A stretch of DNA of 64,000 bases from Candidatus Yanofskybacteria bacterium RIFCSPLOWO2_01_FULL_42_49 (GTDB taxonomy: Bacteria > Patescibacteriota > Minisyncoccia > 2-02-FULL-40-12 > GWA2-44-9), in contig MGKI01000011.1 of NCBI GenBank assembly GCA_001795615.1, positions 44,996 to 108,995 of the forward strand. The letters run 5' to 3'. The position numbers and the translations under genes are program-made. Shown in pieces: positions 5,985 to 43,335 of the stretch; the first letter of the stretch is position 1, and each line of letters opens with the position of its first letter. A model generated the notes under the pieces. The model had not been told where the DNA came from. It saw only the letters and a list, made by a program, of their open reading frames with translations, and ran no database searches.

Positions 5985-6095
5985 CCCTAAATCCTAAACA
6001 AATTCAAAGTTCAAAACCCAAAATTTAAAACAGTTTTTGGCTTAAATATTAGAATTTAGATATTGTTTAGAAATTAGAAATTAGAGATTAGAAAT
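5985..6095. repeat. Composite intergenic element, copy 3 (AT-rich module only, lacking the GC hairpin block), upstream of the giant surface-protein gene.
   Basis: ctaaatcctaaaca…gatattgtttagaaattagaaattagagattagaaatt shares both flanking modules with copies 1 and 2, but the 68-nt hairpin block is absent. Confidence 0.6.
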
Positions 6096-6096
6096 T

Positions 6097-6133
6097 CTAT
6101 ATATCTTTATTAAATCTTAATAAAGATATATAG
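6097..6133. terminator. Perfect inverted repeat ctatatatctttattaa-atc-ttaataaagatatatag immediately after the stop of the minus-strand GT gene.
   Basis: 17-bp stem with 3-nt loop, 2 nt from the stop at 6136. AT-rich, so the stem is weak; it could also be a protein-binding palindrome in the promoter region of the giant gene. Confidence 0.45.
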
Positions 6134-6135
6134 GT

Positions 6136-7299
6136 TTAGGCCTTAATTATGGCCTCGAGAGTCTTGCTAGCGGCATCTTTCCAGTTAAACTTAGATGCTT
6201 GCTTTGTTCCCTTTTTGACCATAAAATGGGAGAGTTTTTTATCTCCCAAAATTTTGGTTATCCACAACTCCAACTCGACAACATCGTAAGGATCTATTAA
6301 TACCGCCGCATCTCCGACTACCTCCGGAAGCGAAGAATTTCTTGAAGTGATGACGGGAACACCAAAAGACATTGCTTCAAGCGGAGGAAAACCAAAGCCC
6401 TCAAAAAAAGATGGATAGATAAAAACATCCGCCGCGGAGTAATATAAAAATTTTTCCTCCTTGCTTAAATGTCCAGTAAAAATTATGTGGTGCCGATAAT
6501 TTGATCCGTCTGCTTCTTTAAAAATTTCTTCGCAAAGCCACCCCTTCGCTCCTGCAATGACCAAGCCGACATCTTTATATTTAGGGTCTGTTTTCAGGTT
6601 GTTAAATGCCTTGATGATGCCTACGATATTTTTTCGCGGTTCAAGTTTGCCGAGAAAAAGAATAAATCTGTCAGGAAGATTTTTTTCACGCTTAAAATTA
6701 ATGATATTAACGACATCGGATGAATTAGCAACATCGAATGTCCGCGGGACATTCGATGTTGTAATACCGGAACAAATAACTTCAATGCGGGCGGGATCAA
6801 TTTTATAAAAATTAACTAAGTCTTTTTTAGTTGACTCTGAAACGGAGATTATTTTGTCGGAAAATTTTGCTTGCCACTCCGGTCTCATTTGTAAATTGTG
6901 CCAAACTCTTTTTACCGGAGTTAAAAATTCCGGATAATGCAGATAGGATAAATCGTGAAAGATGGTTACTCTCTTGCATTCCGGCGACAGAGAAGAAATA
7001 AAAAAGTGAGGAAAGAAAAAAACATCCGCCCCCCCGACCATTTTGTCCAGGCATGGCCTATTAAAAAATCGGGACGAAGTGAACAAAATATTATTTGGAT
7101 AGTTGAATTTATATAACTCAACGTTCTTCTCTTTCAGCCAAGAATAATCGGGGAGCTTATTTTTTGAAGAAGAATAAAAAAGTTTAAATTTAATATCACC
7201 ACCTTCTTTGATCAGGAGGGGTATTAAATTTTCAGCATATTCTTCAATGCCGCTTTTTATGGAATTACCGAGAACACGAATGTCAATACCGATAACCAT
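6136..7299 (-). CDS. Glycosyltransferase family 1 (GT4-type).
   Basis: C-terminal E-X7-E region [40 protein letters not shown]. 387 aa. Confidence 0.8.
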
Positions 7300-7344
7300 A
7301 AGCGTAAAACTTAAAGCGCAAAACGAAAAATAACAGCTTAAAAC

Positions 7345-7725
7345 CTAAAATTTTCTTTTCCCTTTAAGAGTTAGGATGCTAGAACCAAGAATATTGGACA
7401 GCTCTTTAGTCTCTTGCAACAACTGGTTTGCCTTATTTCCATCAGCCTTATGAGAATCTCTTAAAAGACCAAGCCAAAACTTACTTTCATTTGCTGACTT
7501 TAGCGCGTAGCTAAAAAAGTTTGTAAAATCTTTTTTAGTGCTTCCAGCTTGAGCTTCAATTATATTGGCTCCTATACTTGTAGCGCTTCTTAGTAGTTGT
7601 TTAGAGATAATCTCAATACTAAAATCTTTTCTATCCAAAGAATCGATAAAATTTATAATATCTAGGGCATAAATATATGCTCTTCTCTTTAACTCTATTT
7701 TTTCTTTTGAGTTGTTGTTTTGCAC
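7345..7725 (-). CDS. Four-helix-bundle protein (the family often encoded in 23S rRNA intervening sequences). GTG start.
   Basis: ATSIGANIIEAQ… motif (the SIGANIAEG signature of that family). 126 aa. The ORF-track M at 7725 corresponds to GTG. Confidence 0.7.
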   Translation of the reverse strand: MQNNNSKEKIELKRRAYIYALDIINFIDSLDRKDFSIEIISKQLLRSATSIGANIIEAQAGSTKKDFTNFFSYALKSANESKFWLGLLRDSHKADGNKANQLLQETKELSNILGSSILTLKGKRKF

Positions 7726-7740
7726 TTTTCGCTTTGCACT

Positions 7741-8856
7741 TTACGCTTTATCATTTAATTTTTCAAGTACCTTCTGCCTAAATACTTCAACATCAAACTT
7801 AAGTGCCTGGTCTCGACAGTTCTGGGGGTTGAATTTGTTTGTATCAAAATTCTTTACGACATAGGCAAGAGAATCAACCGTCTGCTCATCAAAAAATAAA
7901 CCGGTTTTATTTTCCACTATGGTTTCAACCGCTCCCCCGCTTCGGAAAGCAATCACTGGCCGGCCAGAAGCCATGCCTTCAAGGGGAACTATGCCGAAAT
8001 CTTCTTCTTGGGGAAATATTAAAGCCTGCGCTTTTGCGTAAAGACTGGATAGCCGGTCGTCAGAAACTTGTCCTAAAAATTCTATATTTTTTGCTTTACA
8101 CTTTTCGCTTTGCGATTTTAATTTTCGAAGTTCTGGACCGACGCCCACGATTTTCAGAGGCAAACCGAGTTTAGAAAAAGCCTTAATCCCAAGGTCAAAT
8201 CGTTTATAAGCGACCAAGCGGCCAACCATAAGAAAATAATTTCCAATTTCCAACCCCCTGGTTAGTGAATAATTTCCAAACTTGAATTTTGAAACATCAA
8301 CCGATGGATAAATAACTTGTGATTCTCGTCCGTAATATTTTTTGATTCTTTCTTTAATAAAATCCGATATCGCCCAGAATTCATCTACCCGATACGAGGC
8401 CTCTTTATCCCACATCCTCAGATAAGATATAAACGGCGGCAGAATGGCTTTAATAACTCGCGGATACCCGAACTCCTCGACAAATTTGTGGCTGTCGTCC
8501 CACAAAAACCTCGGTGGCGTCAGGCAAAAGCAAATATGCTTAGTGGAGGGTTTTGTGATAATACCCTTCGCAAAAGAAGCGGAGAGAGAAATCACCACAT
8601 CAAATTGAGAGAAATCAAACTGCTCTATGGCAAGAGGCATCAATAAAGGAAATCCCCGGTGATATTTTTTAACAAATGGGATTTTTTGCAAAAAAGAGGT
8701 CCTGATGTCCTTCCCCTCAAAAATACCGCCCGTAGTATTCTTGTCATAAAAGAGAGTATAAATGGGGGCATCGGGAAATATGGTACATAAAACCTGAAGC
8801 ATTCTCTCCGCTCCACCGAACTGATTGAGATATTCATGAACAAACGCGATACGCAT
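7741..8856 (-). CDS. Glycosyltransferase family 1 (GT4-type).
   Basis: EDFGIVPLEGMASGRPVIAFRSGGAVETIVENKTGLFF (E-X7-E GT4 motif). 371 aa. Confidence 0.8.
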   Translation of the reverse strand: MRIAFVHEYLNQFGGAERMLQVLCTIFPDAPIYTLFYDKNTTGGIFEGKDIRTSFLQKIPFVKKYHRGFPLLMPLAIEQFDFSQFDVVISLSASFAKGIITKPSTKHICFCLTPPRFLWDDSHKFVEEFGYPRVIKAILPPFISYLRMWDKEASYRVDEFWAISDFIKERIKKYYGRESQVIYPSVDVSKFKFGNYSLTRGLEIGNYFLMVGRLVAYKRFDLGIKAFSKLGLPLKIVGVGPELRKLKSQSEKCKAKNIEFLGQVSDDRLSSLYAKAQALIFPQEEDFGIVPLEGMASGRPVIAFRSGGAVETIVENKTGLFFDEQTVDSLAYVVKNFDTNKFNPQNCRDQALKFDVEVFRQKVLEKLNDKA

Positions 8857-8905
8857 AATGTAGTACGAATACTGCGAATAATTCGTGATATTCGTATTGT
8901 GTTAT
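8857..8905. repeat. ACGAAT-rich leader element, copy A (short form), ending 11 nt upstream of the GT (7741..8856) start codon.
   Basis: aatgtagtacgaatactgcgaataattcgtgatattcgtattgtgttat shares the core with copies B–D. Confidence 0.7.
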
Positions 8906-10287: not shown

Positions 10288-10365
10288 TCCTCGCCAAAAC
10301 TAGCATAAAACTTGAACTTCTTCAACTGAGTATCCGCGACATTATGCATCAGCTTTATGCCAAAG

Positions 10366-10413
10366 ACTTCGTACCAATTTGTCTCATAACCATGCCGATC
10401 GGAATTCTTATAA
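10366..10413. repeat. 45-nt imperfect-palindrome stem-loop, copy i (TTGTCTCATAA-N21-TTATAAGACAA).
   Basis: ttgtctcataaccatgccgatcggaattcttataagacaa. Confidence 0.7.
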
Positions 10414-10443
10414 GACAACCCAAAAACCCCTTTCGGGGTTTTT

Positions 10444-10873
10444 GGGCCTGTGTTCAATAAGCCGAGTTCTGTCTGGTCTGCCTGTCGGCAGACAGGGGCA
10501 ATCATTTATCTGGGCCGCACATTACTGTGGGGCTCTAGCGAGCTAACTTTTCGAACCAGGCATTTTCTAAGTTTCCAAAGAAAGTGCCTGGAACGCTGCT
10601 CTTGCACTCGAGTAAGGATTTAGCCGTTTCATTCTCAACCTTTTATCCCCGGTTGAGACTAAGCTTATTAATGATTGTATCAATAATTCGGGATCAGCTT
10701 TCCTTCGCCTTTCGGCTCAGGACGTCTCTAATCGCACCTCTCGCATCACTGTGGACGGGTGTTACCCGCTACCCTGCTCCCTTCTTCGCATAAAGCTCCG
10801 AAGGGGAGTGCTCGGACTTTCCTCTCTTGCTTTTGGCGAGAGTAATTGCCTAAAACACAGGATAATTTAATCA
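10444..10873 (-). ncRNA. rnpB: RNase P RNA (bacterial type A).
   Basis: Minus strand carries the 5' P4 strand GAGAGGAAAGTCCGAGC, then GGGAGCAGGGTAGCGGGTAACACCCG (compare E. coli GGGCAGGGTGCCAGGTAACGCCTGG), then 3' CAGATAAATGATTGCC…ACAGAACTCGGCTTATTG (compare TAGATGAATGACTG…ACAGAACCCGGCTTATCG). P1 pairs CCTGTGTT with AACACAGG; P2 pairs GGCAAT with ATTGCC; P3 is ctctc/gagag. Followed by terminator hairpin aaaaacccctttcggggttttt (10422..10443). Confidence 0.8.
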
Positions 10874-10947
10874 TAACATTAAAAAAGTCAAAAAACAAGC
10901 GTTTGTTAGACAAACCCACCAAAGCAAAATGACAAGACAACAAGACA

Positions 10948-10996
10948 CCACTTGTCTCATAATCATGCCGACCGGAGTTGTTATAAGACAAGTTAG
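10948..10996. repeat. 45-nt stem-loop, copy ii, between the PaaX-like gene and rnpB.
   Basis: ttgtctcataatcatgccgaccggagttgttataagacaa. Confidence 0.7.
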
Positions 10997-11008
10997 GTGG
11001 AAGGAAAT

Positions 11009-11542: not shown

Positions 11543-11545
11543 AAA

Positions 11546-11590
11546 ATTTGTCTCATAAAGGTTCCGATCGGTATTATTATAAGATAATTA
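11546..11590. repeat. 45-nt stem-loop, copy iii, upstream of the PaaX-like gene.
   Basis: ttgtctcataaaggttccgatcggtattattataagataa. Confidence 0.65.
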
Positions 11591-12980: not shown

Positions 12981-14135
12981 CTACTGCGCTGACTTATAGT
13001 ATCCCAATGCTTCAAGCCCCGGCAGTTTTTCTCCGGCCAAGAATGCCAGCATTGCTCCCCCGCCGGTGGAGACGAAGTTTCCGCCAGAGGCGGATCCGCC
13101 TTCGGCGGAAAATTTATCAAAAATTTTGAATTTTGAAACTGCAGCAATTGTATCACCACCCCCGACTATTTTGTAAGCTTTGGACTCAACGATAGCTTCG
13201 GCAATTTTCTGGGTACCCATAGCAAAAGCCGAATTTTCAAAAAGTCCCATCGGCCCGTTCCATATTACCATAGACGCACCACCGATTGCATCAGCATATC
13301 TCTTTATCGTCTTTTCTCCTATATCAAGTATCTTATTGTCAAAAACAACAAAATCCTCCGGAATTAGAAGCTGGGAACTATCCAGGTCAAGACCAGCAAG
13401 AAGCTCCTTTGAATTCTCGTCCACAACTGAACTGCCCATGTCCTGGCCTTTTTCTTTAAGCACATCGTTTGCAACTACGCCACCAAGCAATATCTTTTCG
13501 GCTTTGTCTACAAAATTCTTGATAACCGACACCTTTGTTTCCGTTTTCGCTCCACCGATAATTATTATCTTTCCTAATTTAGAAGCATAAATTGCTTTTC
13601 GAAGTTGAACCGTCTCTTCCTGCACCAATAATCCGGCAAAACTTGGCAAAAATTCGGTTATGGCTGATACGGAAGCGTGGTCGCGATGACAAACCGCAAA
13701 ATTGTTATTAATGTAAATATCAAACCCCTTTGATAAGCTCAGGGCAAGCCCTTTATCATTTTCTTTTTCTCCGGATCCAGCAACTGCCGGATTGCGAATA
13801 TTATCCAAGAGACCGACACCCGGGTAGTTAGCAAGGTGCCCTTCAATGTCTTCGATATTTTTGATAAATACCACTTCGCGTCCCAGAAGGATATGAAGTT
13901 GGGGAATAAGATTGGAAAAAGAACTATCATCTTCGTGAAGGTGGGTAATCATTACCACCTTAGCTCCACGCTCAACTAGCCAGTCAATCATCACCTTTTG
14001 TTTCTTAATTCTAAACGATTCCGTGATTTCAGTAGCACACCCGCCTTCGCCAAGGCTTCGGACGGGCATGTCAAAATCAACCCTTAATAAAACTTTTTTG
14101 TTTTTTAAATCGGGAATATCGAGGACAGTTTTCAT
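12981..14135 (-). CDS. pgk: Phosphoglycerate kinase. Carries a 30-nt in-frame palindromic insertion (SAEGGSASGG) near the C-terminus.
   Basis: KKVLLRVDFDMP…GGGDTIAAV…STGGGAMLAFLAGEKLPGLEAL PGK signatures. 384 aa. Confidence 0.9.
   Translation of the reverse strand: MKTVLDIPDLKNKKVLLRVDFDMPVRSLGEGGCATEITESFRIKKQKVMIDWLVERGAKVVMITHLHEDDSSFSNLIPQLHILLGREVVFIKNIEDIEGHLANYPGVGLLDNIRNPAVAGSGEKENDKGLALSLSKGFDIYINNNFAVCHRDHASVSAITEFLPSFAGLLVQEETVQLRKAIYASKLGKIIIIGGAKTETKVSVIKNFVDKAEKILLGGVVANDVLKEKGQDMGSSVVDENSKELLAGLDLDSSQLLIPEDFVVFDNKILDIGEKTIKRYADAIGGASMVIWNGPMGLFENSAFAMGTQKIAEAIVESKAYKIVGGGDTIAAVSKFKIFDKFSAEGGSASGGNFVSTGGGAMLAFLAGEKLPGLEALGYYKSAQ
13080..13109. repeat. 30-nt GC-rich double mini-hairpin, in frame within pgk.
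   Basis: tccgcc-aga-ggcgga tccgcc-ttc-ggcgga, encoding SAEGGSASGG relative to canonical PGK. Confidence 0.8.
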
Positions 14136-14935
14136 AAAATTTTTGAAACAGTGGCTAAAATTTTTACAAACTCTTCTTTATTTACACTTGCACCGCCTAC
14201 CAAAACACCGTCAAATTGATTATTTTGTAAAAATTCCCGGGCATTAGCAGAAGTGATGGAACCGCCATATAAATAGGTCTTAGGTTTTAGGTTATAGGTT
14301 TTAGATAAAACTTCTTTGATTATAAATATTGACTCCGCAGCACTTTCGGGGGTATCGGAACGGGCGCCGGGAGTCGTGCTTATCGCCCAGACCGGCTCAT
14401 AGGCAATGATACACCGTGTGACTTCATCAGCCGAAAGACCGGCAAAAGTTGCTTCGACTTGTTTTTTTATGAAATCCTTCCAGCCGGAGGCTGGTTCGCC
14501 TTCGGCGGAAAAATCTCTTTCTCTCTCGCCTATGCAGACTATCGGTACCATTTCATTCCTTAAGACGGCCTTAAGTTTTTTATTTACCGTTTCGTTAGAC
14601 TCGTTTAACTTCCATCTTCTTTCGGAGTGGCCAACAATGACATATCCCACACCGAGTTTGCACAACATCGATCCAGAGACCTCGCCGGTTAGAGCCGTTT
14701 TGTCGTCTATCGATATGTCCTGCGCGCCAAGTTCCGCCTGATGTTCCAAGTGTGATGTTTTTAAAATCTTTCCGACTTCCTCAGTAAAAACAAAGGGGGG
14801 ACAAAATATCAGTCCGAATCTTTCGGCTTCCGATAAAGAACCGAGGTATTTGTCAGCCGAATCCAGAATCTCGACCGCTTCGGCCAGCGAATCGGGATGA
14901 TTCTTCCAATTGGCCACAATCAGTTGTTTAGTCAT
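14132..14935 (-). CDS. tpiA: Triosephosphate isomerase. Carries a 30-nt in-frame palindromic insertion (SAEGEPASGW).
   Basis: ANWKNHP…VGHSERR…CIGE…YEPVWAISTTPG TIM signatures. ATGA overlap with pgk. Confidence 0.9.
   Translation of the reverse strand: MTKQLIVANWKNHPDSLAEAVEILDSADKYLGSLSEAERFGLIFCPPFVFTEEVGKILKTSHLEHQAELGAQDISIDDKTALTGEVSGSMLCKLGVGYVIVGHSERRWKLNESNETVNKKLKAVLRNEMVPIVCIGERERDFSAEGEPASGWKDFIKKQVEATFAGLSADEVTRCIIAYEPVWAISTTPGARSDTPESAAESIFIIKEVLSKTYNLKPKTYLYGGSITSANAREFLQNNQFDGVLVGGASVNKEEFVKILATVSKIL
14480..14509. repeat. 30-nt GC-rich double mini-hairpin, in frame within tpiA.
   Basis: ccagcc-gga-ggctgg ttcgcc-ttc-ggcgga, encoding SAEGEPASGW. Confidence 0.8.
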
Positions 14936-16598: not shown

Positions 16599-16610
16599 CG
16601 CTTCGCTTGT

Positions 16611-16695
16611 GTAATACGAATTTTACAAATATCACACGAATACTGCGAATAATTCGTGGTATTCGTATACCATTCGTAGTATTCAGATTATGTTA
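16611..16695. repeat. ACGAAT-rich leader element, copy B, between GT2 and galT, ending about 12 nt upstream of the galT ATG.
   Basis: gtaatacgaattttacaaatatcacacgaatactgcgaataattcgtggtattcgtataccattcgtagtattcag. Confidence 0.8.
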
Positions 16696-17430: not shown

Positions 17431-17643
17431 CGGTCAATATCTAATACCAAATAACCAATAACCAACATCCAATAAAACAATTAAAAAATATTTTAAATAA
17501 CCAAACCCGTAATTGTTTTAAACATTATATAATCGTTTATTTATTGGTTATTGGTGATTGAATATTGGTTATTTGTTAATTATTCAGTAGCTTTAATCTA
17601 TCACAATTTGACCCTTTATTCAAACTCGCATAATCTTAATTGA

Positions 17644-18523: not shown

Positions 18524-18592
18524 TATAATACGAATGCCACGAATAGTTATTCGCAGTATTCGTGTGATATTCGTAGAATTCGTATTACACTT
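18524..18592. repeat. ACGAAT-rich leader element, copy C (opposite genomic orientation, same orientation relative to transcription), ending 5 nt upstream of the topA ATG.
   Basis: Reverse complement gtgtaatacgaattctacgaatatcacacgaatactgcgaataactattcgtggcattcg matches B and D. Confidence 0.8.
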
Positions 18593-18594
18593 TA

Positions 18595-20906
18595 TGAATC
18601 TAGTCATCGTTGAGTCACCTACAAAAAGTCGCACAATTTCAAAATTCCTTGATAGGAGTTTTTCGATTCGCGCTTCCGTCGGCCATATTCGCGATCTTCC
18701 TAAAAGCAACAAAAAAGCCGTCGATATCAAAGGGGGGTTTATCCCCCATTACGAAATAAGCGAAGGCAAGAAAGACATCATTGATGATCTTAAAAAAACC
18801 GCCGCAAAGGCCGATGAAATTTATCTGGCTACTGACCCTGACAGAGAAGGTGAAGCAATCGCATGGCACATTGCCCAGGTATTAAACCTGGGAAACTCTA
18901 AATCCGACAGAGATTCCCGGCTTCACACGGGAACCTTTTCCAAGCAAACTCTAAACTCTAAACAATCTCAAATCTCAAATCTCAAATCTCAAAAAATTAA
19001 ACGAATTGTTTTTCACGAGATTACAAAAGAAGCTATACAGGAAGCACTCAAGCATCCTCGTGAAATAGATAAAAAACTTGTAAAAGCGCAGGAGGCGCGA
19101 CGAGTACTCGACCGTCTGGTTGGTTATGACTTATCCGGGTTGATTTGGAAAAAGGTGCGTTACGGACTTTCCGCGGGCCGGGTCCAGTCGCCGGCTCTTC
19201 GCATTATTGCCGAGCGCGAACGCGAAATCCAAGCTTTTAAAAGCGAGGATTATTACATTATTACCGCTGATGTTTTTGGAGGGAATAAGACAGTATTTCA
19301 AGTTACCTGCGAAGATCAGCCTAAAGACGCGAAAATCGCTGAAACCATTCTGGCTAAGAGTAAAACCGGATCATGGTTCGTCAAAAATATTGAAGAAGGA
19401 GAAGCTAAGCGTTCGCCTAGATCACCTTTCACCACATCAACCCTGCAGCAATCTGCGAGTTCGCGTTTGGGATTCTCTCCGTCCCGAACCATGGGCATAG
19501 CCCAAAAACTATATGAACAGGGCTACATCACCTATATGCGCACCGACAGTTTAAATATCGCCTCTTCCGCCCAAGGACAGATTGTAAACCTGATTGAGCA
19601 AAAATACGGCAAACAATATGCCGAGCCAAGAACATATAAGACTAAGAGCAAAAGCGCTCAAGAAGCCCACGAAGCAATCCGGCCGACAAATTCAGCTAGA
19701 GAAATCGCCGGCCACACCGAGGAACAAAAAAAGCTTTATCGCCTAATCAGGGAAAGAACAATCGCCTCTCAAATGGCCGATGCTAAAATTTTGCGAGCCA
19801 AGATAACAGCAAACACCAGAGAAGGGGGTATCCCCGATTTTGCCACAACCGGTTCAAGGGTTCTTTTTGACGGCTGGCTGGCTTGCGATACCAGAGCCAG
19901 AGGTGAAGATATAGAATTGCCGAAAGTCGTTAAAGACGAGCCGCTCACCTTGAAAGACATAATCAGTGAAGAAAAACATACCGAGCCGCCGCCCCGTTAT
20001 ACCGAGGCTGGCCTTGTTAAAGAGTTGGAAAAGCGCGGAATCGGAAGACCGTCTACTTATGCTTCTATTATTAAAACTTTGTACGATAGAAAATATGTAG
20101 AAAAAGAAGGTCGGGCGCTTAAACCGACAGACACAGGAGAAGTTGTCAGTTCTTTCCTTGAAAAAAATTTTATGGCCTATATCAATGACACTTTTACAGC
20201 TGAAATGGAAGACGAACTTGACGATATAGCAACCGGCAAAAGAGACTATGTTAAAACCCTCCAGGATTTTTACGTGCCTTTTCATAAAGATGTTAAAGCC
20301 AAAGAAAAAATAGACAAGCTGACCAACCTCGGTGCAGCGCCAACAAAATGGAAATGCCCGGAATGCGGCAATGCCATGATAATTAAACTTGGCAAGAGCG
20401 GGAAATTCATGAGTTGCGAACGATATCCGGAATGCAAAGGATCTCGTCGTATTGACGGTTCGGTGGTAGAGCCAAACAAACCTATCGGGACCGATCCGAA
20501 AACCGGCCTGCCAATCTTTGTTATGGAAGGAAAATTCGGACCTTATGTTCAAATCGGAGAAACCCATTCGACAAGCTCAGGGCAAGATATTAAAGAAAAG
20601 GTAAAGCCAAAAAGAGCAAGCGTCCCCAAAGGCAAAGACCCGGCAACGGTCAGTCAAGAAGAAGCTCTTAAATATTTAAGCCTGCCCCGCATACTCGGCA
20701 CTCACCCGGAAACCGGAAAAGAAATCGTTGCCAATATCGGCCGTTTTGGGCCTTATATTATGCACGACGGTGACTTTCGATCGCTTAAAAAAGATTCCGG
20801 AGATAATGTTTACACGATTGAACTATCCCGTGCCCTTGAAATATTGAAAGAAGAGAAAAAGATCGGGCGCCGAAGAAAAATTGAAGACAAGAGCGAAAAA
20901 CATTGA
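18595..20906 (+). CDS. topA: DNA topoisomerase I. Has a low-complexity in-frame insert (…KQTLNSKQSQISNLKSQKIK…) and C-terminal Zn-ribbon repeats.
   Basis: MNLVIVESPTKSRTISKFL Toprim start. RVLDRLVGYDLSGLIWKKV. CPECG/C-x-RYPEC zinc ribbons. Start taken at ATG 18595 rather than the upstream alternative start at 18534. Confidence 0.9.
18947..18996. repeat. In-frame heptamer microsatellite in topA (ctctaaa ×2, ctcaaat ×4).
   Basis: caaactctaaactctaaacaatctcaaatctcaaatctcaaatctcaaaaaa. Confidence 0.85.
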
Positions 20907-23549: not shown

Positions 23550-23550
23550 A

Positions 23551-23637
23551 AATGTAATACGAATTCTACGAATATCACACGAATACTGCGAATAATTCGT
23601 GGTATTCGCATATTATTCGTTATATTCGTATTATGTT
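23551..23637. repeat. ACGAAT-rich leader element, copy D, between parA and parB, ending 4 nt upstream of the parB ATG.
   Basis: aatgtaatacgaattctacgaatatcacacgaatactgcgaataattcgtggtattcgcatattattcgttatattcgtattatg. Confidence 0.8.
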
Positions 23638-23639
23638 GA

Positions 23640-27921: not shown

Positions 27922-28008
27922 GGGCTATATACTATCAATCTCTCTCAATTTTAGCAAGTTTTAGAATTTGGAATTTGTTATTTGTGATTTGGAATTTCAA
28001 AAGAAAGG

Positions 28009-28846: not shown

Positions 28847-29365
28847 CTATAATTGGTTGTCTTCGAGCTGCTTTTCTTCTTGTTCGTTTGTTTCTTGTTC
28901 TCTGTCTTTCTTCTCTTTCGCCGGCGGCGCATCATCTTTCCCAGGTTCGCCTATTTCTCGATAGATTGTGCCCAATACTCCGTTAACAAATTTCCCGGAC
29001 GACTCTCCGCCGAACGATTTTGCCAGTTCAATTGCCTCATTGATGGCAACTTTGGGAGGCACCTCTTCCCTGTTGCCGAAAAGCAGTTCATAAAGCCCGA
29101 GACGAAGAACATTGCGATCAATAACAGCTATCTGTTCAAGCGGCCACTGGGGTGCAGCCTTTTCAATAATTTTATCCAGCTCTTTAATATGTTCAATAAC
29201 TCCGTTGATAAGATTACGGATAAACGACGGATCTTCCACTCCGGCTGCAAACTCTTTGATATTTCTTTCTACCACCTCAGACAGCATCTCTTCTTTTCTG
29301 CCTCGAAAATCCCACTCATAAAGGGACTGCATAGCAACACTTCTAGAAAGATGTCTACTGGCCAT
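28847..29365 (-). CDS. nusB: Transcription antitermination factor NusB with acidic/Lys-rich C-terminal tail.
   Basis: [20 protein letters not shown]… NusB fold pattern. 172 aa. Confidence 0.7.
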
Positions 29366-29485
29366 CTTTTAAATTTCTAATATCTAATTCCTAATTACCA
29401 ATAAAATGTCCGATGGATTTAATGTCTAATTGGAAATTTAGAATTTAATATTTTATTAGTAATTAGGTATTAGTAATTAGACATT

Positions 29486-29701
29486 CTATTTCCCCGCCTT
29501 CTTCTCCTTCTTCTTCAACTCTTTCGCCAAAACATTTATAACTTCCCTGCCCTTATAATAGCCGCAATTTTTACAAACAATGTGCGGCAAAATCTCACGA
29601 TTACAGTGAGAACATTTAACTAATTTCTTCGGCTTCAGAGCAAGGTGGCTTCGCCTTCGAAGCTGTTTGCCCTTTGCCATATGATGTCTTGGTACTGCCA
29701 T
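29486..29701 (-). CDS. rpmF: 50S ribosomal protein L32 with Lys-rich tail.
   Basis: MAVPRHHMAKGKQLRRRSH…C-x2-C…C-x2-C zinc-ribbon L32 pattern. 71 aa. Confidence 0.7.
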   Translation of the reverse strand: MAVPRHHMAKGKQLRRRSHLALKPKKLVKCSHCNREILPHIVCKNCGYYKGREVINVLAKELKKKEKKAGK

Positions 29702-35092: not shown

Positions 35093-36142
35093 ATGGCAGC
35101 TAAAATCAATCCGCCAGCTGGCGGACAAAAACTAATCGTCATTGTAGGCCCGACGGCTTCAGGAAAGTCGGATTTGGGCATCAAAATTGCTAAAAAAATT
35201 TCCGCCAGAGGCGGACCAGCCTCTGGCTGGAACGGTGCGGAAATAATTTCCGCGGATAGCCGACAAGTTTATCGTGGAATGGACGTCGGAACAGGAAAAG
35301 TTTTGCGAGACAAAACTTTTCCTGTTCCGAGTTCAAAAGTTAAAAGTGAAAAGTTAAAAGTTTTAAGAAATTATTTTTATTCTTCGGGGATTCGACATCA
35401 TTTGATAGATGTTGCTTCACCGAAAAAACAATTTACGGCTGATGACTTTAAAAGATTAGGGCAAAAAGCAATAAAAGAAATACTCGAGAAAAATAAAATC
35501 CCCATCATTGTCGGAGGTACCGGATTTTACATTGATATCTTGCTTGGCCGAATGTCGGTTGCCGAAGTCCCGCCAAATCCCAAATTGCGTAAATGCTTCG
35601 AGAGACTCAATACGGAGCATCTTTTCAAAATGCTTCGAAAACTAGACCTCCAACGAGCTAAAACAATAGGACCCAAAAACAAGCGCCGACTTATCCGAGC
35701 ATTGGAGATAATTCTAATAACCGGCAGACCGATACCAAAACCAGTATTAAGTATAAAGTATAAAGTATTATGGTTAGGGTTAAATCCTAAAAACTTGAAA
35801 GAGAGAATTAAGGTTCGCCTAGACGAGCGACTAAAACAAGGGATGATTGAAGAAGTTATAAATTTGCGCAAGCAAGGGGTAAGCTGGAAACGGCTTGATG
35901 GTTTCGGACTGGAATACCGCTATATCTCAAAGTACCTTCGAGAATTTTCAATTTCCAATTTTCAATTTTCAAAAAAAGATTACTACAATAATTTCAAGAA
36001 ATCATTCTATTACGGTAAACTCTTAAGAGATATAATCAAATACTCAAAGCGCCAGATGACCTGGTTCAAGAGAAATGAGGAAACATGTTGGATTAAAAAT
36101 TATTTGGAAGCAGAGAAATTGACGAAAAATTTTGTCTCATAG
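35093..36142 (+). CDS. miaA: tRNA dimethylallyltransferase with three in-frame low-complexity/palindromic insertions.
   Basis: GPTASGKSDLGIKIAKK…AEIISADSRQVYRGMDVGTGK…HHLIDV MiaA signatures. Inserts are SARGGPASGW, a KVKSEKLKV block and a FSISNFQFS block. Confidence 0.85.
   Translation: MAAKINPPAGGQKLIVIVGPTASGKSDLGIKIAKKISARGGPASGWNGAEIISADSRQVYRGMDVGTGKVLRDKTFPVPSSKVKSEKLKVLRNYFYSSGIRHHLIDVASPKKQFTADDFKRLGQKAIKEILEKNKIPIIVGGTGFYIDILLGRMSVAEVPPNPKLRKCFERLNTEHLFKMLRKLDLQRAKTIGPKNKRRLIRALEIILITGRPIPKPVLSIKYKVLWLGLNPKNLKERIKVRLDERLKQGMIEEVINLRKQGVSWKRLDGFGLEYRYISKYLREFSISNFQFSKKDYYNNFKKSFYYGKLLRDIIKYSKRQMTWFKRNEETCWIKNYLEAEKLTKNFVS
35201..35230. repeat. 30-nt GC-rich double mini-hairpin, in frame within miaA.
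   Basis: tccgcc-aga-ggcgga ccagcc-tct-ggctgg, encoding SARGGPASGW. Confidence 0.8.
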
Positions 36143-36177
36143 CTCTTCCGTACGGAATAGTTGTGAGACACTCGTAT

Positions 36178-37773
36178 CTATGCTCTTAACCTTTCTCTAA
36201 ATATCCCCTCGATTATTTGGGGATTTGCTTTACCCTTTGTTTCCCGCATGGCCATGCCGACAAGAAATTTTAGCGACGCTTCTTTCCCTTTTTTATAATC
36301 TTCCACGGCTTTAGGATTATCAGCAACAACCTTGTCCACCGCCATCTCAAGATCGCCGATGCTTGATAACTGTGCAAGATCTTTTTCTTCTATTATTTTC
36401 CCCGGAGAAGCTCCGGTCGCAAACATTTCTTTCAGCACTGTCTGGGCGCCGCTTGAAGAAACCTCGCCATGGAATATTCTGACGACAAGATCGGCCAGCA
36501 TTTCCGGTAACACTTTTGTATCTGCCAGTTCAGCATAAACCTCTTCGGCCATTCGTTTTAATTCGGTGATAAGATAGTTAGCTGCTAATTTAAAAAGTTG
36601 TTTGTGATGCTCCTCCAGTTTGCCCGCCCCGTAGTGTGATTTCGATTTTTCTTTGCCGGAGGAGGCATTCGAAATCTCTACTTCGGGGTCAAAAGATAAC
36701 AATTCCGAAGCCACATGTTCAAAATAATCTCCGAGCAGTTTGTCTGTGGTAAAAAGCTTAGTGTCCTTTTCTGGCAAACCGTATTGCTTGGCAAATCTTT
36801 CTCTTCTTTGTTGCGGTAACTCTGGAAGTCGGGACTTGATGTCTTCAATGTCGACGTCTTCAAAATGAAGCGGCGGCAAGTCCGGTTCCGGGAAATATCT
36901 GTAATCCTGCGCCTCTTCCTTTGTTCTCATTAAATACGTCTCCCCTTTTTTCTCATCCCAACCCCGTGTCTCTTGCTTTACCTTCTCCCCTGCCTCAAGA
37001 AGTTCGGTTTGTCTTTTTATCTCATAATTAACAGCATCGGCGGCAAACTTAATAGAGTTAATGTTTTTAACCTCAACTTTTGTCCCTAATTTGTTTGGTA
37101 ATTGTCCGCCAACTGGCGGATTGGAAATTGGTAATTCCGGTCGAAGTGATATATTCACTTCTACGCGCATCTGTCCTTTTTCCATGTCGGCGTCGGAAAC
37201 ATTTAAGTATCTCCAAATAAGCTGCAACTCCTCCGCAAATTTTTTGACCTCCTGTCCGCTTTCAAGATCTGGTTCTGTCACCAACTCCATAAGTGGCACC
37301 CCGGCACGATTAAAATCAACCAGTGAGTAGTCGGCACCAGTCGGATGGTACAACCGTCCAGCATCTTCCTCAAGATGTATTCGTGTTATTCTTATTCGTT
37401 TCGGATTTGAAATTTCTGGTTCTGAACTTGTTTCAGATTTTATATCAAGATACCCTTCATAACACAACGGTTTCTGGTATTGAGAAATCTGATAACCCTT
37501 AGGCAAATCTGGGTAAAAGTAATTTTTTCTTTCAAAAAAGGTGTCTTTTTCAATTTTACAATTCAACGCCAATCCGGTCATAATCACTTTTTTCACAGCA
37601 TCTTCGTTTGCGACGGGCAAGGTTCCCGGATGCCCCATACAAATTGGACAGACATTAACATTCGGGTGTTTTTCATCCGGATCATTTAACGAATCACAAA
37701 ACATTTTAGTTTTTGTCTTCAGCTCGGCGTGTATTTCCAGACCGATAACTGGCTTGTATTTAGTAGCGGCCAT
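36178..37773 (-). CDS. gatB: Asp/Glu-tRNA amidotransferase subunit B. Contains a 65-nt in-frame palindromic insertion (DPEVEISNASSGKEKSKSHYGAG).
   Basis: MAATKYKPVIGLEIHAELKTKTKMFC…NVCPICMGHPGTLP GatB N-terminus. 531 aa. Confidence 0.85.
   Translation of the reverse strand: MAATKYKPVIGLEIHAELKTKTKMFCDSLNDPDEKHPNVNVCPICMGHPGTLPVANEDAVKKVIMTGLALNCKIEKDTFFERKNYFYPDLPKGYQISQYQKPLCYEGYLDIKSETSSEPEISNPKRIRITRIHLEEDAGRLYHPTGADYSLVDFNRAGVPLMELVTEPDLESGQEVKKFAEELQLIWRYLNVSDADMEKGQMRVEVNISLRPELPISNPPVGGQLPNKLGTKVEVKNINSIKFAADAVNYEIKRQTELLEAGEKVKQETRGWDEKKGETYLMRTKEEAQDYRYFPEPDLPPLHFEDVDIEDIKSRLPELPQQRRERFAKQYGLPEKDTKLFTTDKLLGDYFEHVASELLSFDPEVEISNASSGKEKSKSHYGAGKLEEHHKQLFKLAANYLITELKRMAEEVYAELADTKVLPEMLADLVVRIFHGEVSSSGAQTVLKEMFATGASPGKIIEEKDLAQLSSIGDLEMAVDKVVADNPKAVEDYKKGKEASLKFLVGMAMRETKGKANPQIIEGIFRERLRA
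36624..36688. repeat. 65-nt imperfect palindromic element, in frame in gatB.
   Basis: cccgccccgtagtgtgatttcgatttttctttgccggaggaggcattcgaaatctctacttcgggg. Arms cccgtagtgtgatttcga and tcgaaatctctacttcggg. Confidence 0.8.
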
Positions 37774-37821
37774 AACTACATTAAAATACCATTATTTTTT
37801 GTAATAAAAAAGTCTCCATTA

Positions 37822-39561: not shown

Positions 39562-39650
39562 CTTCCCTCTTTATCAAAGAACGGTTTTTAAATGTTATCA
39601 AAAAACTTGTAAACAAAAAAGCCCTTCTGGGGGCTTGAGCGAAAAAGGTA

Positions 39651-40334
39651 TTATGACAACTTGATCCCGTTGGCGTTTAGAAGTTTTAACAATTCGCTTT
39701 TGACATCAGAGAATATCTCCTCAATGCTTCTGGACCCGTCAATAAAATGAAGATTTGCTTCCGGGTACTCGCGAGCAAAGATATAAAAATTTTCCCTTAC
39801 TCTTGCTAGCGTGTCTAGCCTTTCCATTTCGTCAAACGACCGACCCGACGCCTTGCCTCGTTCAATGGCCAGTTCAGGTGGTACATCAAAAATAAATACT
39901 TTGTCAGGCCACACCCAGTATCGGCGGTGGAGTTGTTGGTTCATTTCCATAAGCATGTGCAATTCAATAACATTGCCCTTTTCTGCTCCGTAAACCATCG
40001 ACTCCCTAAACCTGTCAGTGCAGACGATGTGTCCCGCTTCAAGACCAGGTATTACTTCCATCTCGCAATGCATCCGGCTGTCTTTGGCAAACAACTCTTG
40101 CAAATCAAACGGATCGGTTTGAGCAAACAATTGCTTGTCTCCCAAAATAGACCTTATCATCCTTCCAAAGCGTTGAGTAGTCGGTTGTTTTGTCCGCAGA
40201 ACCGCAATATTTTTATCTGCCAGATTGGCCCTCAACCAGTTGCATATCCTCAAAACCTGGCTTGACTTCCCACAGAAGTCGATACCACTGCCACACAAAA
40301 AAAGGCCACGATAGGGATTTTGTAAAACACCCAT
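39651..40334 (-). CDS. Divergent thymidylate-kinase-like P-loop nucleotide kinase.
   Basis: FLCGSGIDFCGKSSQ P-loop, LRTKQPT…GRMIRSIL, lid region HIVCTDRFRESMVYGAEKG, and DVPPELAIERGKASG…FDEMERL (Tmk architecture). A canonical tmk exists at 59920. Confidence 0.55.
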   Translation of the reverse strand: MGVLQNPYRGLFLCGSGIDFCGKSSQVLRICNWLRANLADKNIAVLRTKQPTTQRFGRMIRSILGDKQLFAQTDPFDLQELFAKDSRMHCEMEVIPGLEAGHIVCTDRFRESMVYGAEKGNVIELHMLMEMNQQLHRRYWVWPDKVFIFDVPPELAIERGKASGRSFDEMERLDTLARVRENFYIFAREYPEANLHFIDGSRSIEEIFSDVKSELLKLLNANGIKLS

Positions 40335-40508
40335 GTTTTTCTCCTTAAAGAACTAAAATGCTCCAGTAGGAGCATTTTAGTTCACTTTCAAAAATTAAGC
40401 AAGTTTTTACTTCATCCCGCACCAATCTTATCCCTGCCTGCCGGCAGGCAGGCGTTGACCGCCATTAAGAAAGGTGGCGGGATTGGTGCGGGATTCCGTT
40501 CGCTTCGC

Positions 40509-40931
40509 TCACTTCACTTCAATCCCCATCGATCTTGCCGTTCCCTCGATTATTTTCATTGCCCCTTCGACATCATTCGCGTTTAAATCGGCCATTTTTT
40601 GTTCAGCTATCTCTTTGACTTGGGCTTTGGTAACTTTGCCGACTTTTGTCTTGTTTGGCACACCGGAACCTTTTTCAAGTCCGGCGGCAACTCGTAAAAG
40701 ATATGCCGCAGGAGGGGTTTTTAATTTAAATTCAAAACTCCTGTCTTCATAGATAGTTATCTCGACTGGGGTAACTTGGCCCATTTTATCTTTGGTTGCA
40801 TCATTAAACTGCGACACGAACTGCTGGAGATTTATTCCATGAGGACCCAAAGCCGTACCAACCGGCGGAGCCGGAGTAGCTCGCCCGCTTTCGACTTGGA
40901 GTTTTACAATTGTTTTTATTTTCTTAGCCAT
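40509..40931 (-). CDS. rplK: 50S ribosomal protein L11.
   Basis: [34 protein letters not shown]. 140 aa. Confidence 0.9.
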
Positions 40932-40934
40932 AAA

Positions 40935-41112
40935 TTTTAATAAATCTCTAAATCCTAATCTCTAAATCCTAAACACCTGCCTGCCGGCAGGCAGGAATCC
41001 AAAATTCTCAGCCTGAGGCTGATCCGCCTCTGGCGGAAAATATCTAAATGTTTTTGGATTTTGATATTTGGTCATTTGATATTGTTTAGAAATTAGAAAT
41101 TGCGAGTTATAT
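40935..41112. repeat. Composite intergenic element, copy 1 (AT-rich heptad module plus three GC hairpins), upstream of rplK.
   Basis: aaatctctaaatcctaatctctaaatcctaaacacctgcctgccggcaggcaggaatccaaaattctcagcctgaggctgatccgcctctggcggaaaatat…gatattgtttagaaattagaaatt. Nearly identical to copy 2. Confidence 0.85.
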
Positions 41113-41115
41113 TTT

Positions 41116-41661
41116 TTACAATTTCTTAATTTGTAAAAAATCTAACTCGACTGGTGTTTCGCGACCAAAAATAGTCACCAACACCTTTACTCGGCCCTTT
41201 TCCGGATCTATCTCGGATATCTTGCCGTCAAAGTCCTTGAACGGACCGTCGGTTATTTTTACCCTATCACCCACCTCCACGTCAATCTTGTACTTCGGTT
41301 CGTCAACGCCCATTCTCTTCAATAATGTCTCAACTTCTTCGCTTGAAAGAGGCGTCGGCACGGTGCCAGCTCCGATAAATCCGGTCACATTCGGCGTATT
41401 TCTAACTACATACCAGGAATCATCATCCACCAACATCTCAACTAAAACATAGCCGGGATAAATTTTTTCCTCAATCGTTTCTCTTTTCCCGCCCTTAATT
41501 CTGATCTTTTTTTCCTTGGGAACAAGAACATTAAAAATTTTGTCTTCAAATCCAAGCGACTCAACACGCTGTTTGAGGTTTCGGGACACATTGTCTTCAT
41601 AACCTGAATAGGTATGGATCGCGTACCACTGTTTCTCTCCGGTTGTAACTTGCTTCGGCAT
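41116..41661 (-). CDS. nusG: Transcription termination/antitermination factor NusG.
   Basis: WYAIHTYSGYEDNV NGN domain plus KOW (VGDRVKITDGPFKDFDGKISEID). 181 aa. Confidence 0.85.
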   Translation of the reverse strand: MPKQVTTGEKQWYAIHTYSGYEDNVSRNLKQRVESLGFEDKIFNVLVPKEKKIRIKGGKRETIEEKIYPGYVLVEMLVDDDSWYVVRNTPNVTGFIGAGTVPTPLSSEEVETLLKRMGVDEPKYKIDVEVGDRVKITDGPFKDFDGKISEIDPEKGRVKVLVTIFGRETPVELDFLQIKKL

Positions 41662-41844
41662 TTATAACTTGCTGGCCGCTCTCGCCTTCCGGCAACTGCC
41701 GGATTATGGCGAGTACGCTCTTGACCGACTTTTTCGTTAAATCTTTCGCTTGCTCCTTACCATACATTAGTATGGCTCGTCGCAATGCTCAGATTTGTCT
41801 CAAATTCGGTCAAGCCAGCTGCGTTCTAATCTAAATCTTTTTTA

Positions 41845-42027
41845 TTAAATTATGAATTTATTCAACAACCACTCGAACATAAAATCTAATAACCCTAAAA
41901 ACACCGCTGTAGCCAAACTAATAGCAACCACCACAATGGTATATTGGACAGTTTGGCTTTTGGTCGGCCAGCTTACTTTTGATAATTCGTGTCTGACCTC
42001 TTTTAGAAAAGTAATGAGTTTATCCAT
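41845..42027 (-). CDS. secE: Preprotein translocase subunit SecE.
   Basis: MDKLITFLKEVRHELSKVSWPTKSQTVQYTIVVVAISLATAVFLGLLDF. Conserved secE-nusG-rplK order. Confidence 0.75.
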   Translation of the reverse strand: MDKLITFLKEVRHELSKVSWPTKSQTVQYTIVVVAISLATAVFLGLLDFMFEWLLNKFII

Positions 42028-42098
42028 TCCATTAATTAAAGTATTTAAAAACGCCCTCGGGCGCACTTAATTTCCCTTAATGATAGCAAAATTTAATA

Positions 42099-42392
42099 TT
42101 AACTGTCAATAGCCTTCTTCTGAACATCGGTGGCCAATAAATAACCTGAGCGAAAGTAGTATTTAAGATTTTCCAAAAAAGACATTCCGTCGTAAGGATA
42201 TAGTTTGCCGGGTTTCGCATTTTTGTAATCAAAAATTCCTTCTCCTTCTATGTTTTTTAAAACGGGGTGGTTTTCATCTCCGTCAATTTCAACTCTCCCC
42301 GGTTCATCGCCTTGCATTTTAAAAGTAGCAATCTTTCTTTGCTTTGCATCTTTGTCCAGTTCGTATAAGTCAACGAAATAAAATAAGGTCAT
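42099..42392 (-). CDS. Hypothetical protein (97 aa).
   Basis: ORF only. Overlaps the next gene by 4 nt. Confidence 0.4.
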   Translation of the reverse strand: MTLFYFVDLYELDKDAKQRKIATFKMQGDEPGRVEIDGDENHPVLKNIEGEGIFDYKNAKPGKLYPYDGMSFLENLKYYFRSGYLLATDVQKKAIDS

Positions 42393-43147
42393 ATCGAGAT
42401 TGTTCCGGTTTCCAATACCGTTGCCGCTATTTGCTTAACACCGGTTATAACTTTGATCAAGGTCGGTGTCACTGTTTCAACACCTATTTCTCTTGGGTCA
42501 ACCAGAAGCCGCTCTAAGGCCTCAACGAGCCTTCTCAATGGCTCTCTCGATTCGTCGTTAATTTCTGTCTTTAGCCCCCGGCGTTTAGCTTCACCTAACA
42601 TGTAATTATACTGATTCCATTCTTCCTTGGCATCTGCAAACATAAAATCATCATGGTCTGTGAGCCAAATTTTTTTAGTTCTTTCTAAAAAAATATTTGC
42701 TAATTTTCTGTCCGCTGCCTTTATCAGATGTTCAAAAAGTACCGCTCGAAATAATTCCTCGTCTGAAATTTCTCTTAAACAATCATCCTCAAGTTTCACG
42801 GCCGGTGTGGCTTCACCTAAAAACCGCTGCAAGGTTCCCTCTTCTTGATTAACCGTCCTCATTACGACTTCTGGGACGACTCCTAATTCTGCGGTTTTAC
42901 TGATAAGTCTCGCTAATAGCTCAAGTTGAACTCTTAATGGCCTTCCTCTGGCTTCGCTCTCTTTGGGCCTGAACAAACCCTTCCCGTCATCTCTAATTTC
43001 TACAACATCAAATCTCTCCGCTCCCTCAAGTGGCCGACTGTCAACAATCTCTCCTCTCTCCAAAACCGACTCAATATCAACTTCCGGACCTGTTTCCGGC
43101 TTTGTGACTGGAGCTTCATGTTTTTCGAAAGATTGACCCTCTGCCAT
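42389..43147 (-). CDS. Hypothetical acidic protein (about 252 aa from MAEGQ).
   Basis: ORF. The track's 69-nt N-terminal extension (MDSCLPAGRCLGF…) is translation of the intergenic palindromic repeat, so the start is placed at 43147. Confidence 0.45.
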   Translation of the reverse strand: MAEGQSFEKHEAPVTKPETGPEVDIESVLERGEIVDSRPLEGAERFDVVEIRDDGKGLFRPKESEARGRPLRVQLELLARLISKTAELGVVPEVVMRTVNQEEGTLQRFLGEATPAVKLEDDCLREISDEELFRAVLFEHLIKAADRKLANIFLERTKKIWLTDHDDFMFADAKEEWNQYNYMLGEAKRRGLKTEINDESREPLRRLVEALERLLVDPREIGVETVTPTLIKVITGVKQIAATVLETGTISI

Positions 43148-43335
43148 AAGTGGTAAAATCTCTAAATCCCAATCTCTAAATCCTAAACACCTGCCTGCCG
43201 GCAGGCAGGAATCCAAAATTCTCAGCCTGAGGCTGATCCGCCTCTGGCGGAAAATATTTAAACGGTTTTGAGCTTTGATATTTGGTTATTTGATATTGTT
43301 TAGAGTTTAGAAATTAGAGTTTAGGGTTTTCTGTT
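43148..43335. repeat. Composite intergenic element, copy 2, upstream of the hypothetical gene 42389..43147 and downstream of gyrB.
   Basis: Same about 150-nt sequence as copy 1 with a few substitutions. Confidence 0.85.

Follow-up and report, generated by a model that had tools for sequence, protein, structure and literature searches.

The Coxiella intervening sequence, an insertion in the 23S rRNA gene, contains an open reading frame (ORF) for S23p, has a 28-bp terminal stem within which RNase III cuts, and upstream of its start codon carries a strain-variable number of tandem heptameric repeats; this ORF is undergoing decay. Where rRNA intervening sequences come from, how they move and what the S23p/PF05635 gene does have been open questions for decades (PMC4990558). 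Here we describe a family of AT-rich elements, with arms made of heptad repeats, that occupies spacers between protein genes in a stretch of 64,000 nucleotides (hereafter, the window) from Candidatus Yanofskybacteria bacterium RIFCSPLOWO2_01_FULL_42_49 (contig MGKI01000011.1, positions 44,996 to 108,995), of the candidate phyla radiation (CPR; Patescibacteria). The window contains three clear copies of the element, two of them filled with GC-rich hairpins and one empty. We regard it as reasonably probable that these copies are gene-less derivatives, similar to MITEs (miniature transposable elements with inverted repeats), of cassettes of the intervening-sequence type, which were secondarily colonised by GC mini-palindromes.

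Copy 1 (about 40932-41117) takes up the whole nusG-rplK spacer, copy 2 (about 43148-43341) the whole spacer between gyrB and a gene for a hypothetical protein of 252 aa, and copy 3, the empty form (5962-6101), the spacer between a GT4 glycosyltransferase gene and a 45-aa ORF; all three have the + orientation of the element, and the genes flanking copy 1 are on the minus strand. An nhmmer profile of 43 metagenomic family members, with copy 3 left out, recovered them with E values of 4e-18, 3e-23 and 2.2e-28, respectively. Copy 3 aligns column for column with these 43 members, with its left core CTAAACA at 5994-6000 and its right core GATATTGTTTAG at 6059-6070, both on the + strand. A first-pass annotation of the window, based on its letters and a list of ORFs, had described copies 1 and 2 as about 95% identical and copy 3 as sharing their AT-rich flanks without the hairpins. 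The heptad repeats, the three GC hairpins and the tail of the two filled copies were all found where that annotation had placed them, and these copies are indeed nearly identical, with a measured value of 93.4% (155 of 166 positions). Copy 3, in turn, is a true homologue. The likeness could be suspected of being mere low complexity, in a sequence of 23% G+C made of short repeats, and the annotation itself had named this as the outcome that would overturn its proposal; we give this explanation next to no credence. Apart from the match of copy 3 to a profile built independently of it, copies 1 and 2 are identical to copy 3, once the GC hairpins are taken out, at 91 of 106 (86%) and 97 of 116 (84%) positions, with alignment scores of 98 and 105, compared with 20 ± 3 for dinucleotide shuffles (z of 25–29) and with at most 43, less than half, for other AT-rich spacers of the window. 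Likewise, copies 1 and 3 share the 24-mer tail exactly and copy 2 matches it with two mismatches, when no such match is expected by chance. Judged by their sequences, therefore, the three copies are homologous.

The GC-rich part of copies 1 and 2, annotated as a 68-nt hairpin block, spans 62 nt and resolves into two modules, each of which is also found alone elsewhere. The first is a perfect palindrome of 20 nt, CCTGCCTGCCGGCAGGCAGG (hereafter PAL), present in copy 1 (40976-40995) as a clean insertion directly after the left core CTAAACA and at the same position in copy 2 (43190-43209). The second is a 30-nt double hairpin (hereafter DHE), which in copy 1 (41008-41037) consists of two 15-nt units, TCAGCC-TGA-GGCTGA and TCCGCC-TCT-GGCGGA, and which is also present in copy 2 (43222-43251). 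Alignment of the three copies, as the annotation had proposed, together with other members of the family, defined the breakpoints of these two modules. PAL lies between the invariant CTAAACA and AAYCCAAAATTC; to either side of it, all of the ten sequences aligned are in agreement, and the 20 nt themselves are confined to copies 1 and 2. A 12-nt linker, AATCCAAAATTC, separates PAL from DHE, and copy 3 keeps it as AATTCAAAGTTC. The breakpoints of DHE are less sharp, because the apical region around it varies across the family.

Empty versions occur at both orthologous and paralogous sites. In a survey of loci from other sequences (designated L plus a number), 118 of the 120 metagenomic element copies among the matches listed carry neither PAL nor the CCGCC-type hairpins, with 44 in one alignment and 10 in another showing this base by base, and the nusG-rplK element of a relative (L260/L261), whose NusG is 96% identical to that of the window, is also empty. 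In L197, another member of the AT-rich family, PAL is found 7 nt from the insertion point used in the window, and the strain L009, identical in NusG, bears an additional double hairpin within its outer arm. Downstream of rplK, in the rplK-tmk spacer, the window carries a solitary PAL (40433-40452) in a three-way stem structure, and the same structure appears in a relative, L251, without PAL. These cases bear out the annotated idea that the GC hairpins come and go independently of the backbone, and they show that this does not happen as a single block: there are two separate modules with defined breakpoints. One could also take the filled form as ancestral, with copy 3 and the other empty copies having lost the GC block by deletion, given that palindromes are prone to deletion and that two states by themselves do not reveal which way an indel went. 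We consider this order of events very improbable, because empty copies make up nearly all of those listed from metagenomes, PAL is at a different position in the one other copy that bears it, and both modules are found alone in many unrelated contexts.

The apical region seems to be a general landing site for GC-rich hairpin repeats, since the loops of other AT-rich family members (L184, L211, L245 and L143) contain different hairpin repeats, of the GTCATTCTGG...CCAGGATGAC and CTCTCCC...GGGAGAGGGTTAGGGTGAGGGG types. Several family copies with a core spacing larger than 63 nt also carry other GC-rich hairpin repeats.

The wider family was collected from metagenomes with an exact 22-mer of the right arm as a query, which biases the scan toward conserved cores, and PAL was sought in genomes as the exact 20-mer. 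The first scan yielded at least 120 contigs from many habitats and the second at least 120 loci plus 35 stretches of viral contigs; the counts from both scans are lower bounds from an arbitrary sampling, ORFs in the fetched loci were called crudely, from stop to stop, and taxon names are those given in the record titles. Heptad arrays make up the arms, with CTAAAnn on one side and nnTTTAG on the other, around the conserved core CTAAACA ... GATATTGTTTAG, and the left arm and inner inverted repeat, which lie outside the query, are conserved in the contigs retrieved. The fetched loci (704 kb) contain 158 distinct family matches, including 39 copies beyond those used to find the loci.

The distance between the two cores falls mainly into three classes among the 68 copies whose left core could be recognised: 50–69 nt in 44, as in copy 3, 70–219 nt in eight more, several of them with other GC-rich inserts, and about 390–402 nt in five. 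The forms of about 400 nt contain, between the same arms, an ORF of 119–121 aa for PF05635 (S23p, the protein of 23S rRNA intervening sequences), and PF05635 ORFs between family arms were found in L134, L169, L228, L231, L241, L248, L297 and L298. The ATG of this ORF is inside the inner stem, within CAAATGACCAAAATCCAAAAT. No PF05635 ORF exists within copies 1-3; several ORF-less copies of the family keep the exact start-codon context of the gene, CAAATGACCAAAATCC. Since they retain the first codons of PF05635, the short forms are most simply seen as internal-deletion derivatives, and we infer that they derive from gene-bearing cassettes. The link to PF05635 cassettes holds across the family, whose core sequence is common to CPR genomes and to contigs with PF05635 homologues labelled as Planctomycetota; the AT-rich arm was absent from the viral contigs checked.

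A gene-bearing cassette, from a sister family, is also found in the window (7300-7745, minus strand), 1.2 kb from copy 3 and between two GT4 genes. Its ORF (7345-7725) matches PF05635 in Pfam with 72.7 bits and an E value of 3e-20; the start codon is inside the 5' arm, and the 3' arm reaches the ATG of the next gene. The arms, made of AAAGCGN/AAAGTGC heptads and their complements, adjoin the two GT4 genes, the first at its stop codon and the following one at its start codon, and pair at −27.6 kcal/mol versus −15.2 ± 3.7 in shuffles. Two other sequences of the window match the family of copies 1-3: a diverged fourth member in a divergent spacer (29361-29494, minus strand; nhmmer E value 1e-5) and a half element with left-arm heptads, AAACTCTAAACTCTAAACAATCTCAAATCTCAAATCTC, read in frame inside topA (18931-19023, plus strand, in a gene at 18534-20906; E value 2e-5). 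The latter is translated as part of an insertion in topoisomerase I.

The minus-strand RNA of copy 1 folds at −59.8 kcal/mol (z −6.8) and copy 2 at −63 kcal/mol (z −5.9), with z values of −4.9 to −6.8 against shuffles for the three copies; the transcribed minus strand is slightly more stable than the plus strand, because of G-U pairs. Terminal inverted repeats with a long stem are, therefore, present in copies 1-3 and in the 7300-7745 cassette. In this, and in having the stem around a PF05635 ORF, the family is like the 23S rRNA intervening sequences of Coxiella, Leptospira and Brucella, which it also resembles by a start codon in or next to the stem, heptads in variable number and an ORF prone to decay, and those sequences are regarded as selfish (PMC4990558). 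Unlike them, the elements described here are located in spacers that separate protein genes rather than in helix 25 or 45 of the 23S rRNA, and the window contains no rRNA; most copies lack the ORF, they are multicopy, with three to four in 64 kb, and their arms are shared across distant hosts.

The family also resembles bacterial MITEs, such as the Correia elements of Neisseria, which are short, non-coding and multicopy, with inverted-repeat ends (PMC10969869, PMC3184786); location in spacers is common to Correia elements and the present family, as, probably, are co-transcription with the neighbours and length variants arising by internal deletion. Unlike in Correia MITEs, the long relative encodes a four-helix-bundle protein and no recognisable transposase, and the arms are heptad arrays instead of unique terminal repeats, with no target-site duplication seen. 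The backbone thus has the workings both of an rRNA intervening sequence and of a MITE, yet it falls outside both groups by its site and its lack of a transposase-encoding parent, and no target duplication was seen at its ends. Modular or mosaic spacer repeats are also represented by BIMEs and by the NIMEs of Neisseria. Pneumococcal BOX elements (PMC3049150) are modular spacer repeats as well, and, as in the elements reported here, their internal modules are optional or variable in number. Unlike in BOX, BIME and NIME elements, with which there is no sequence relation, the optional modules of the present family belong to independent families that are also found in genes and in other phyla. Integron attC sites were rejected as candidates: the cores, CCTAAAC and GTTTAGA, depart from RYYYAAC and GTTRRRY, and the neighbours are housekeeping genes. 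We found no description in the searchable literature of the AT-rich family or of PF05635 cassettes in mRNA spacers.

In the origin that we propose, a full-length cassette with the PF05635 gene in its loop would lose the gene by internal deletion, giving rise to a short spacer element, of which copy 3 would represent the ancestral empty state. In the Yanofskybacteria lineage, one copy would have gained PAL and DHE, unrelated to each other, in its left inner arm, and the filled element would then have been copied to a second spacer 2.2 kb away, resulting in copies 1 and 2. By analogy with rRNA intervening sequences, an element within a polycistronic transcript may fold into a long, imperfect duplex and be cleaved there by RNase III; the transcripts of Correia elements are cut by this same enzyme. 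Reading directly from the sequence, the arms are inverted repeats, and either orientation yields an RNA with CUAAAnn heptads on its 5' side and nnUUUAG heptads on its 3' side. The 5' arm contains UAA in all three frames and the 3' arm UAG in all three frames, with purine-rich AGAG/AGGA (UAGAG/AGGA) runs of the 3' arm just upstream of the next start codon. With stops in every frame of the 5' arm and a purine-rich 3' arm ahead of the start, the heptad design may make insertion nearly harmless to the host in either orientation.

Several observations weigh against this origin. No target-site duplication is visible at the ends of the element, although the heptad arms lack a clear outer limit; neither did we find a transposase, the long form encoding only the PF05635 four-helix-bundle protein, so that mobility is deduced only from the distribution of the elements. 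Most of the high-identity PF05635 homologues of the long form are at a single locus, leuC-leuD, in Planctomycetota, where they may be vertically inherited. Moreover, an RNAalifold analysis of 44 members retained only the invariant 8-bp core, with no compensatory changes; self and non-self complementarity did not differ for the outer arms or for the interior halves, and matched heptad variants were uncorrelated. Lacking covariation between the arms, selection on the stem is not supported. Finally, CGAA heptad variants break the stop-codon pattern, and stop triplets are not strictly kept.

The first-pass annotation had placed the three copies in the 5' regions of minus-strand genes. Indeed, in the window, all three end 3–10 nt ahead of a start codon on the transcribed strand; however, they fill entire spacers, and each is equally a 3' flank of the gene upstream and a 5' flank of the gene downstream. 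Elsewhere, family copies occur in all configurations of flanking genes (25 ++, 18 --, 14 +- and 8 -+), with no orientation bias relative to the flanking ORFs, and the element does not depend on gene context. It could nevertheless be proposed that the element is a host cis-regulatory leader, or 5' untranslated region (5'UTR), that controls the genes downstream, rplK among them, and in which the GC hairpins are regulatory stems that may be present or not. The position of the window copies next to start codons and their strong folds speak in favour of such a role, as does the fact that the E. coli nusG-rplK spacer holds the promoter and leader of the L11 operon. We consider it improbable, because the family copies are found in every orientation and gene configuration and the three downstream genes in the window are functionally unrelated. 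In addition, no Rfam family, including ribosomal-protein leaders, matched the element at gathering scores in the whole window or at E ≤ 1 in 40300-43400, and a consensus search revealed neither sigma-70-like promoters on the gene strand nor terminator-like sites inside the elements.

The nusG-rplK spacer is highly variable among Yanofskybacteria with a NusG 91–97% identical to that of the window. L260/L261 have the same element, empty and of 129 nt, with outer flanks that match those in the window and an inverted centre; in L260, this inversion relative to the window is consistent with recombination of the two inverted arms within the element. The spacer of L255 contains a different heptad palindrome, of the GCGCAGTAG.../...CTACTGCGC type (GCGCAGTAGGTAGTAG...CTACTGCGCTACTGCGC), which is also found downstream of gyrB in L251, whereas L253 has a small ORF and L251 and L257/L258 contain unrelated structured sequence. 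The nusG-rplK spacer is therefore a site of fast turnover and not a conserved leader. Together with the occurrence of all orientations and the lack of covariation between the arms, these unrelated sequences leave a dedicated 5'UTR role unsupported. The spacers downstream of gyrB are likewise wholly different among these Yanofskybacteria. Contigs of independent assemblies (L007, L009, L010 and L259) break inside or beside the nusG-rplK element.

The replacement of one palindrome by another in equivalent spacers also suits a different explanation, namely that heptad palindromes are spacer insulators of translation and transcription, in which stops in every frame precede a purine-rich arm before the start, selected by the host, interchangeable among sequence families and not selfish. 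In addition to L255 and L251, the window itself has other palindromes of this kind (ACGAATA and AATAACC types); furthermore, the elements fill whole spacers, and the polarity of the arms on the RNA, evident directly from the sequence, is the same in either orientation. This explanation appears to us unlikely, and less so than a leader role: some relatives have no palindrome at the site (the ORF in L253 and the other sequence in L257), the CGAA heptads show that stop triplets are not strictly conserved, and the identity of the core between Planctomycetota-type contigs and those of CPR is better explained by spread than by local selection.

In the origin that we favour, the two GC modules are unrelated insertions, and both are found well beyond the element. 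PAL was present in at least 166 distinct sites from at least eight phyla plus viral contigs, with sharp 20-nt ends, when only about 0.5 exact matches would be expected by chance in 596 Gb, by simple arithmetic. Its hosts, by record title, include Patescibacteria, Bacteroidota (cultured strains among them), Omnitrophota, Planctomycetota, Gammaproteobacteria, Bdellovibrionales, Thermodesulfovibrio and Chloroflexi, among others, and several of the 35 stretches of viral contigs carry multiple copies. The flanks of the 166 sites are near random and the stem does not extend past 20 nt; position −1 is A in 41% and T in 9% of them, and besides this bias toward A we found in these sites no target duplication or target motif. 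About one sixth of the testable genomic sites are in long ORFs, mostly translated as LPAGRQ, some interrupt tRNA-like sequences, and in a few cases one PAL is nested within another. PAL is not a fixed partner of heptad arrays, since a lag-7 periodicity occurs in 2.5% of its flanks compared with 0.2% of controls, an enrichment that is not general. Neither is it a sequencing-adaptor artefact, as identical sites appear in independent assemblies, it is found in frame in genes and the titles of some records name a culture strain and not a metagenome-assembled genome.

GC mini-palindromes are also frequent in the window, which contains 33 GC-rich hairpins versus 5–7 in shuffled sequence, including seven TCCGCC-N3/4-GGCGGA units, five of them within genes. 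DHE is in frame in miaA (35201-35230; SARGGPASGW), where it is an 11-residue insertion compared with the solved MiaA (PDB 2qgn); in the triosephosphate isomerase gene (14480-14509; (S)AEGEPASGW), where it enlarges a loop; and in the ORF 12981-14135 (13080-13109; SAEGGSASGG), a putative phosphoglycerate kinase gene (pgk) from its sequence motifs. These in-gene double hairpins are of 30 nt and encode SA[E/R]G[G/E][S/P]ASG[G/W]. Additionally, a single hairpin unit of 15/16 nt, TCCGCCAGCTGGCGGA, encodes PPAGG in miaA (35110-35125), with a sister copy in gatB (37105-37120) that encodes PPVGG. The annotation had suggested that the copies in coding regions behave like those in spacers, and these four genes, with their hairpins in frame, agree with it. 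The GC mini-palindromes are stop-free in all six frames and their sizes of 15 or 30 nt keep the frame; they can therefore survive in genes as well as in hairpin-rich spacers. The window also encodes a class A RNase P RNA (10443-10861, minus strand), which is missed by default annotation with 91.8 bits, under the Rfam gathering score of 100, and which has a PAL-like hairpin, CCUGUCUGCCGACAGGCAGA, at the variable P19 position.

Rickettsia palindromic elements, of about 100–150 bp and exclusive to Rickettsia, insert in frame in protein and RNA genes, adding surface peptide segments. DHE is like them in its in-frame insertion in the ORFs of miaA, triosephosphate isomerase and the putative pgk; unlike them, the present units have lengths of 15, 20 and 30 nt and are found both in a CPR genome and in members of other phyla. 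Elements of this Rickettsia type are mentioned in PMC10969869. REP sequences, tagged with GTAG/CGTC (PMC3733652), are also short GC-rich palindromes, single or paired and without target duplication. Unlike REPs, which are lineage-specific, PAL is a perfect 20-nt palindrome identical in at least eight phyla, located also in ORFs and tRNA-like sequences, and it is untagged, with no GTAG/CGTC tetranucleotide at its ends in the 166 sites. GC clusters and double-hairpin elements are exemplified by the mitochondrial cases of yeast and Allomyces. In mitochondria, GC clusters, double-hairpin elements and repetitive hairpin-forming elements (PMC2800124) are small GC-rich hairpins that are optional in AT-rich spacers and sometimes in genes, as observed here, but they are organellar and of other sequences, so the analogy is one of behaviour only. 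The searchable literature yielded no description of the 20-mer PAL or of such hairpin insertions.

A bolder and rather speculative proposal, which we hold as a whole to be unlikely, has two parts. PAL and the 15-nt CCGCC-N3-GGCGG hairpins might be the smallest known DNA insertions that spread horizontally, moved in trans by some enzyme into spacers, protein loops, tRNA-like sequences and each other. At the same time, PF05635 proteins might be the dedicated partner of heptad-armed cassettes, for mobility or processing, with the cassettes colonising both operon spacers and rRNA.

Proteins encoded in the window have exact matches in GCA_001794105.1, in Rifle aquifer samples and in several further assemblies. 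The order on the minus strand is gyrB, copy 2, the 252-aa hypothetical gene, a 97-aa ORF, secE, nusG, copy 1, rplK, the structured spacer and tmk; around copy 3, it is the GT4 glycosyltransferase gene, copy 3, the small 45-aa ORF and a giant ORF (start 5775). The 45-aa ORF (5775-5959, minus strand) has an N-terminus resembling a signal peptide, MSRRVIIYILAVAFVFS, and is directly upstream of the giant ORF in another frame; it may be the result of a frameshift in, or a split of, the N-terminus of the giant gene. The latter, also on the minus strand, contains tandem repeats of 477 nt at 1614-4412, with three central copies 97–99% identical. A perfect AT-only palindrome, CTATATATCTTTATTAAATCTTAATAAAGATATATAG, is found at 6097-6133, between the GT4 stop codon and copy 3.

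Other repeats are frequent in the spacers of the window. Heptad palindromes of the ACGAATA/TATTCGT type are present in three of them (8857-8901, 16599-16692 and 23550-23639), the two long copies being 89% identical, and the AATAACC type also occurs. Further AT-rich heptad inverted repeats appear at 17431-17643, 27930-28014 and 29361-29494, two of these spacers being divergent. Additionally, a 43-nt hairpin repeat (TTGTCTCATAA...CCGATCGG...TTATAAGACAA) is found four times at gene ends (10376-10418, 10949-10991, 11545-11587 and 36129-36171).

At a practical level, repeats of this kind fragment metagenome assemblies and create spurious ORF calls. As for their biology, the anatomy of intervening sequences, with heptad arms, a terminal stem and a PF05635 ORF that starts in the stem, is now seen in spacers between protein genes, where abundant ORF-less derivatives suggest a reservoir that could supply the copies in rRNA; if PF05635 proteins were indeed the partner of these cassettes, the source of rRNA intervening sequences would be explained. 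The many natural variants are available for work on RNase III cleavage and on PF05635 binding. Very short hairpins, in turn, behave as independent insertions, even in essential genes of a reduced CPR genome, and a mechanism is needed to explain how the same 20-mer comes to be present, without changes, in several phyla and in viruses.

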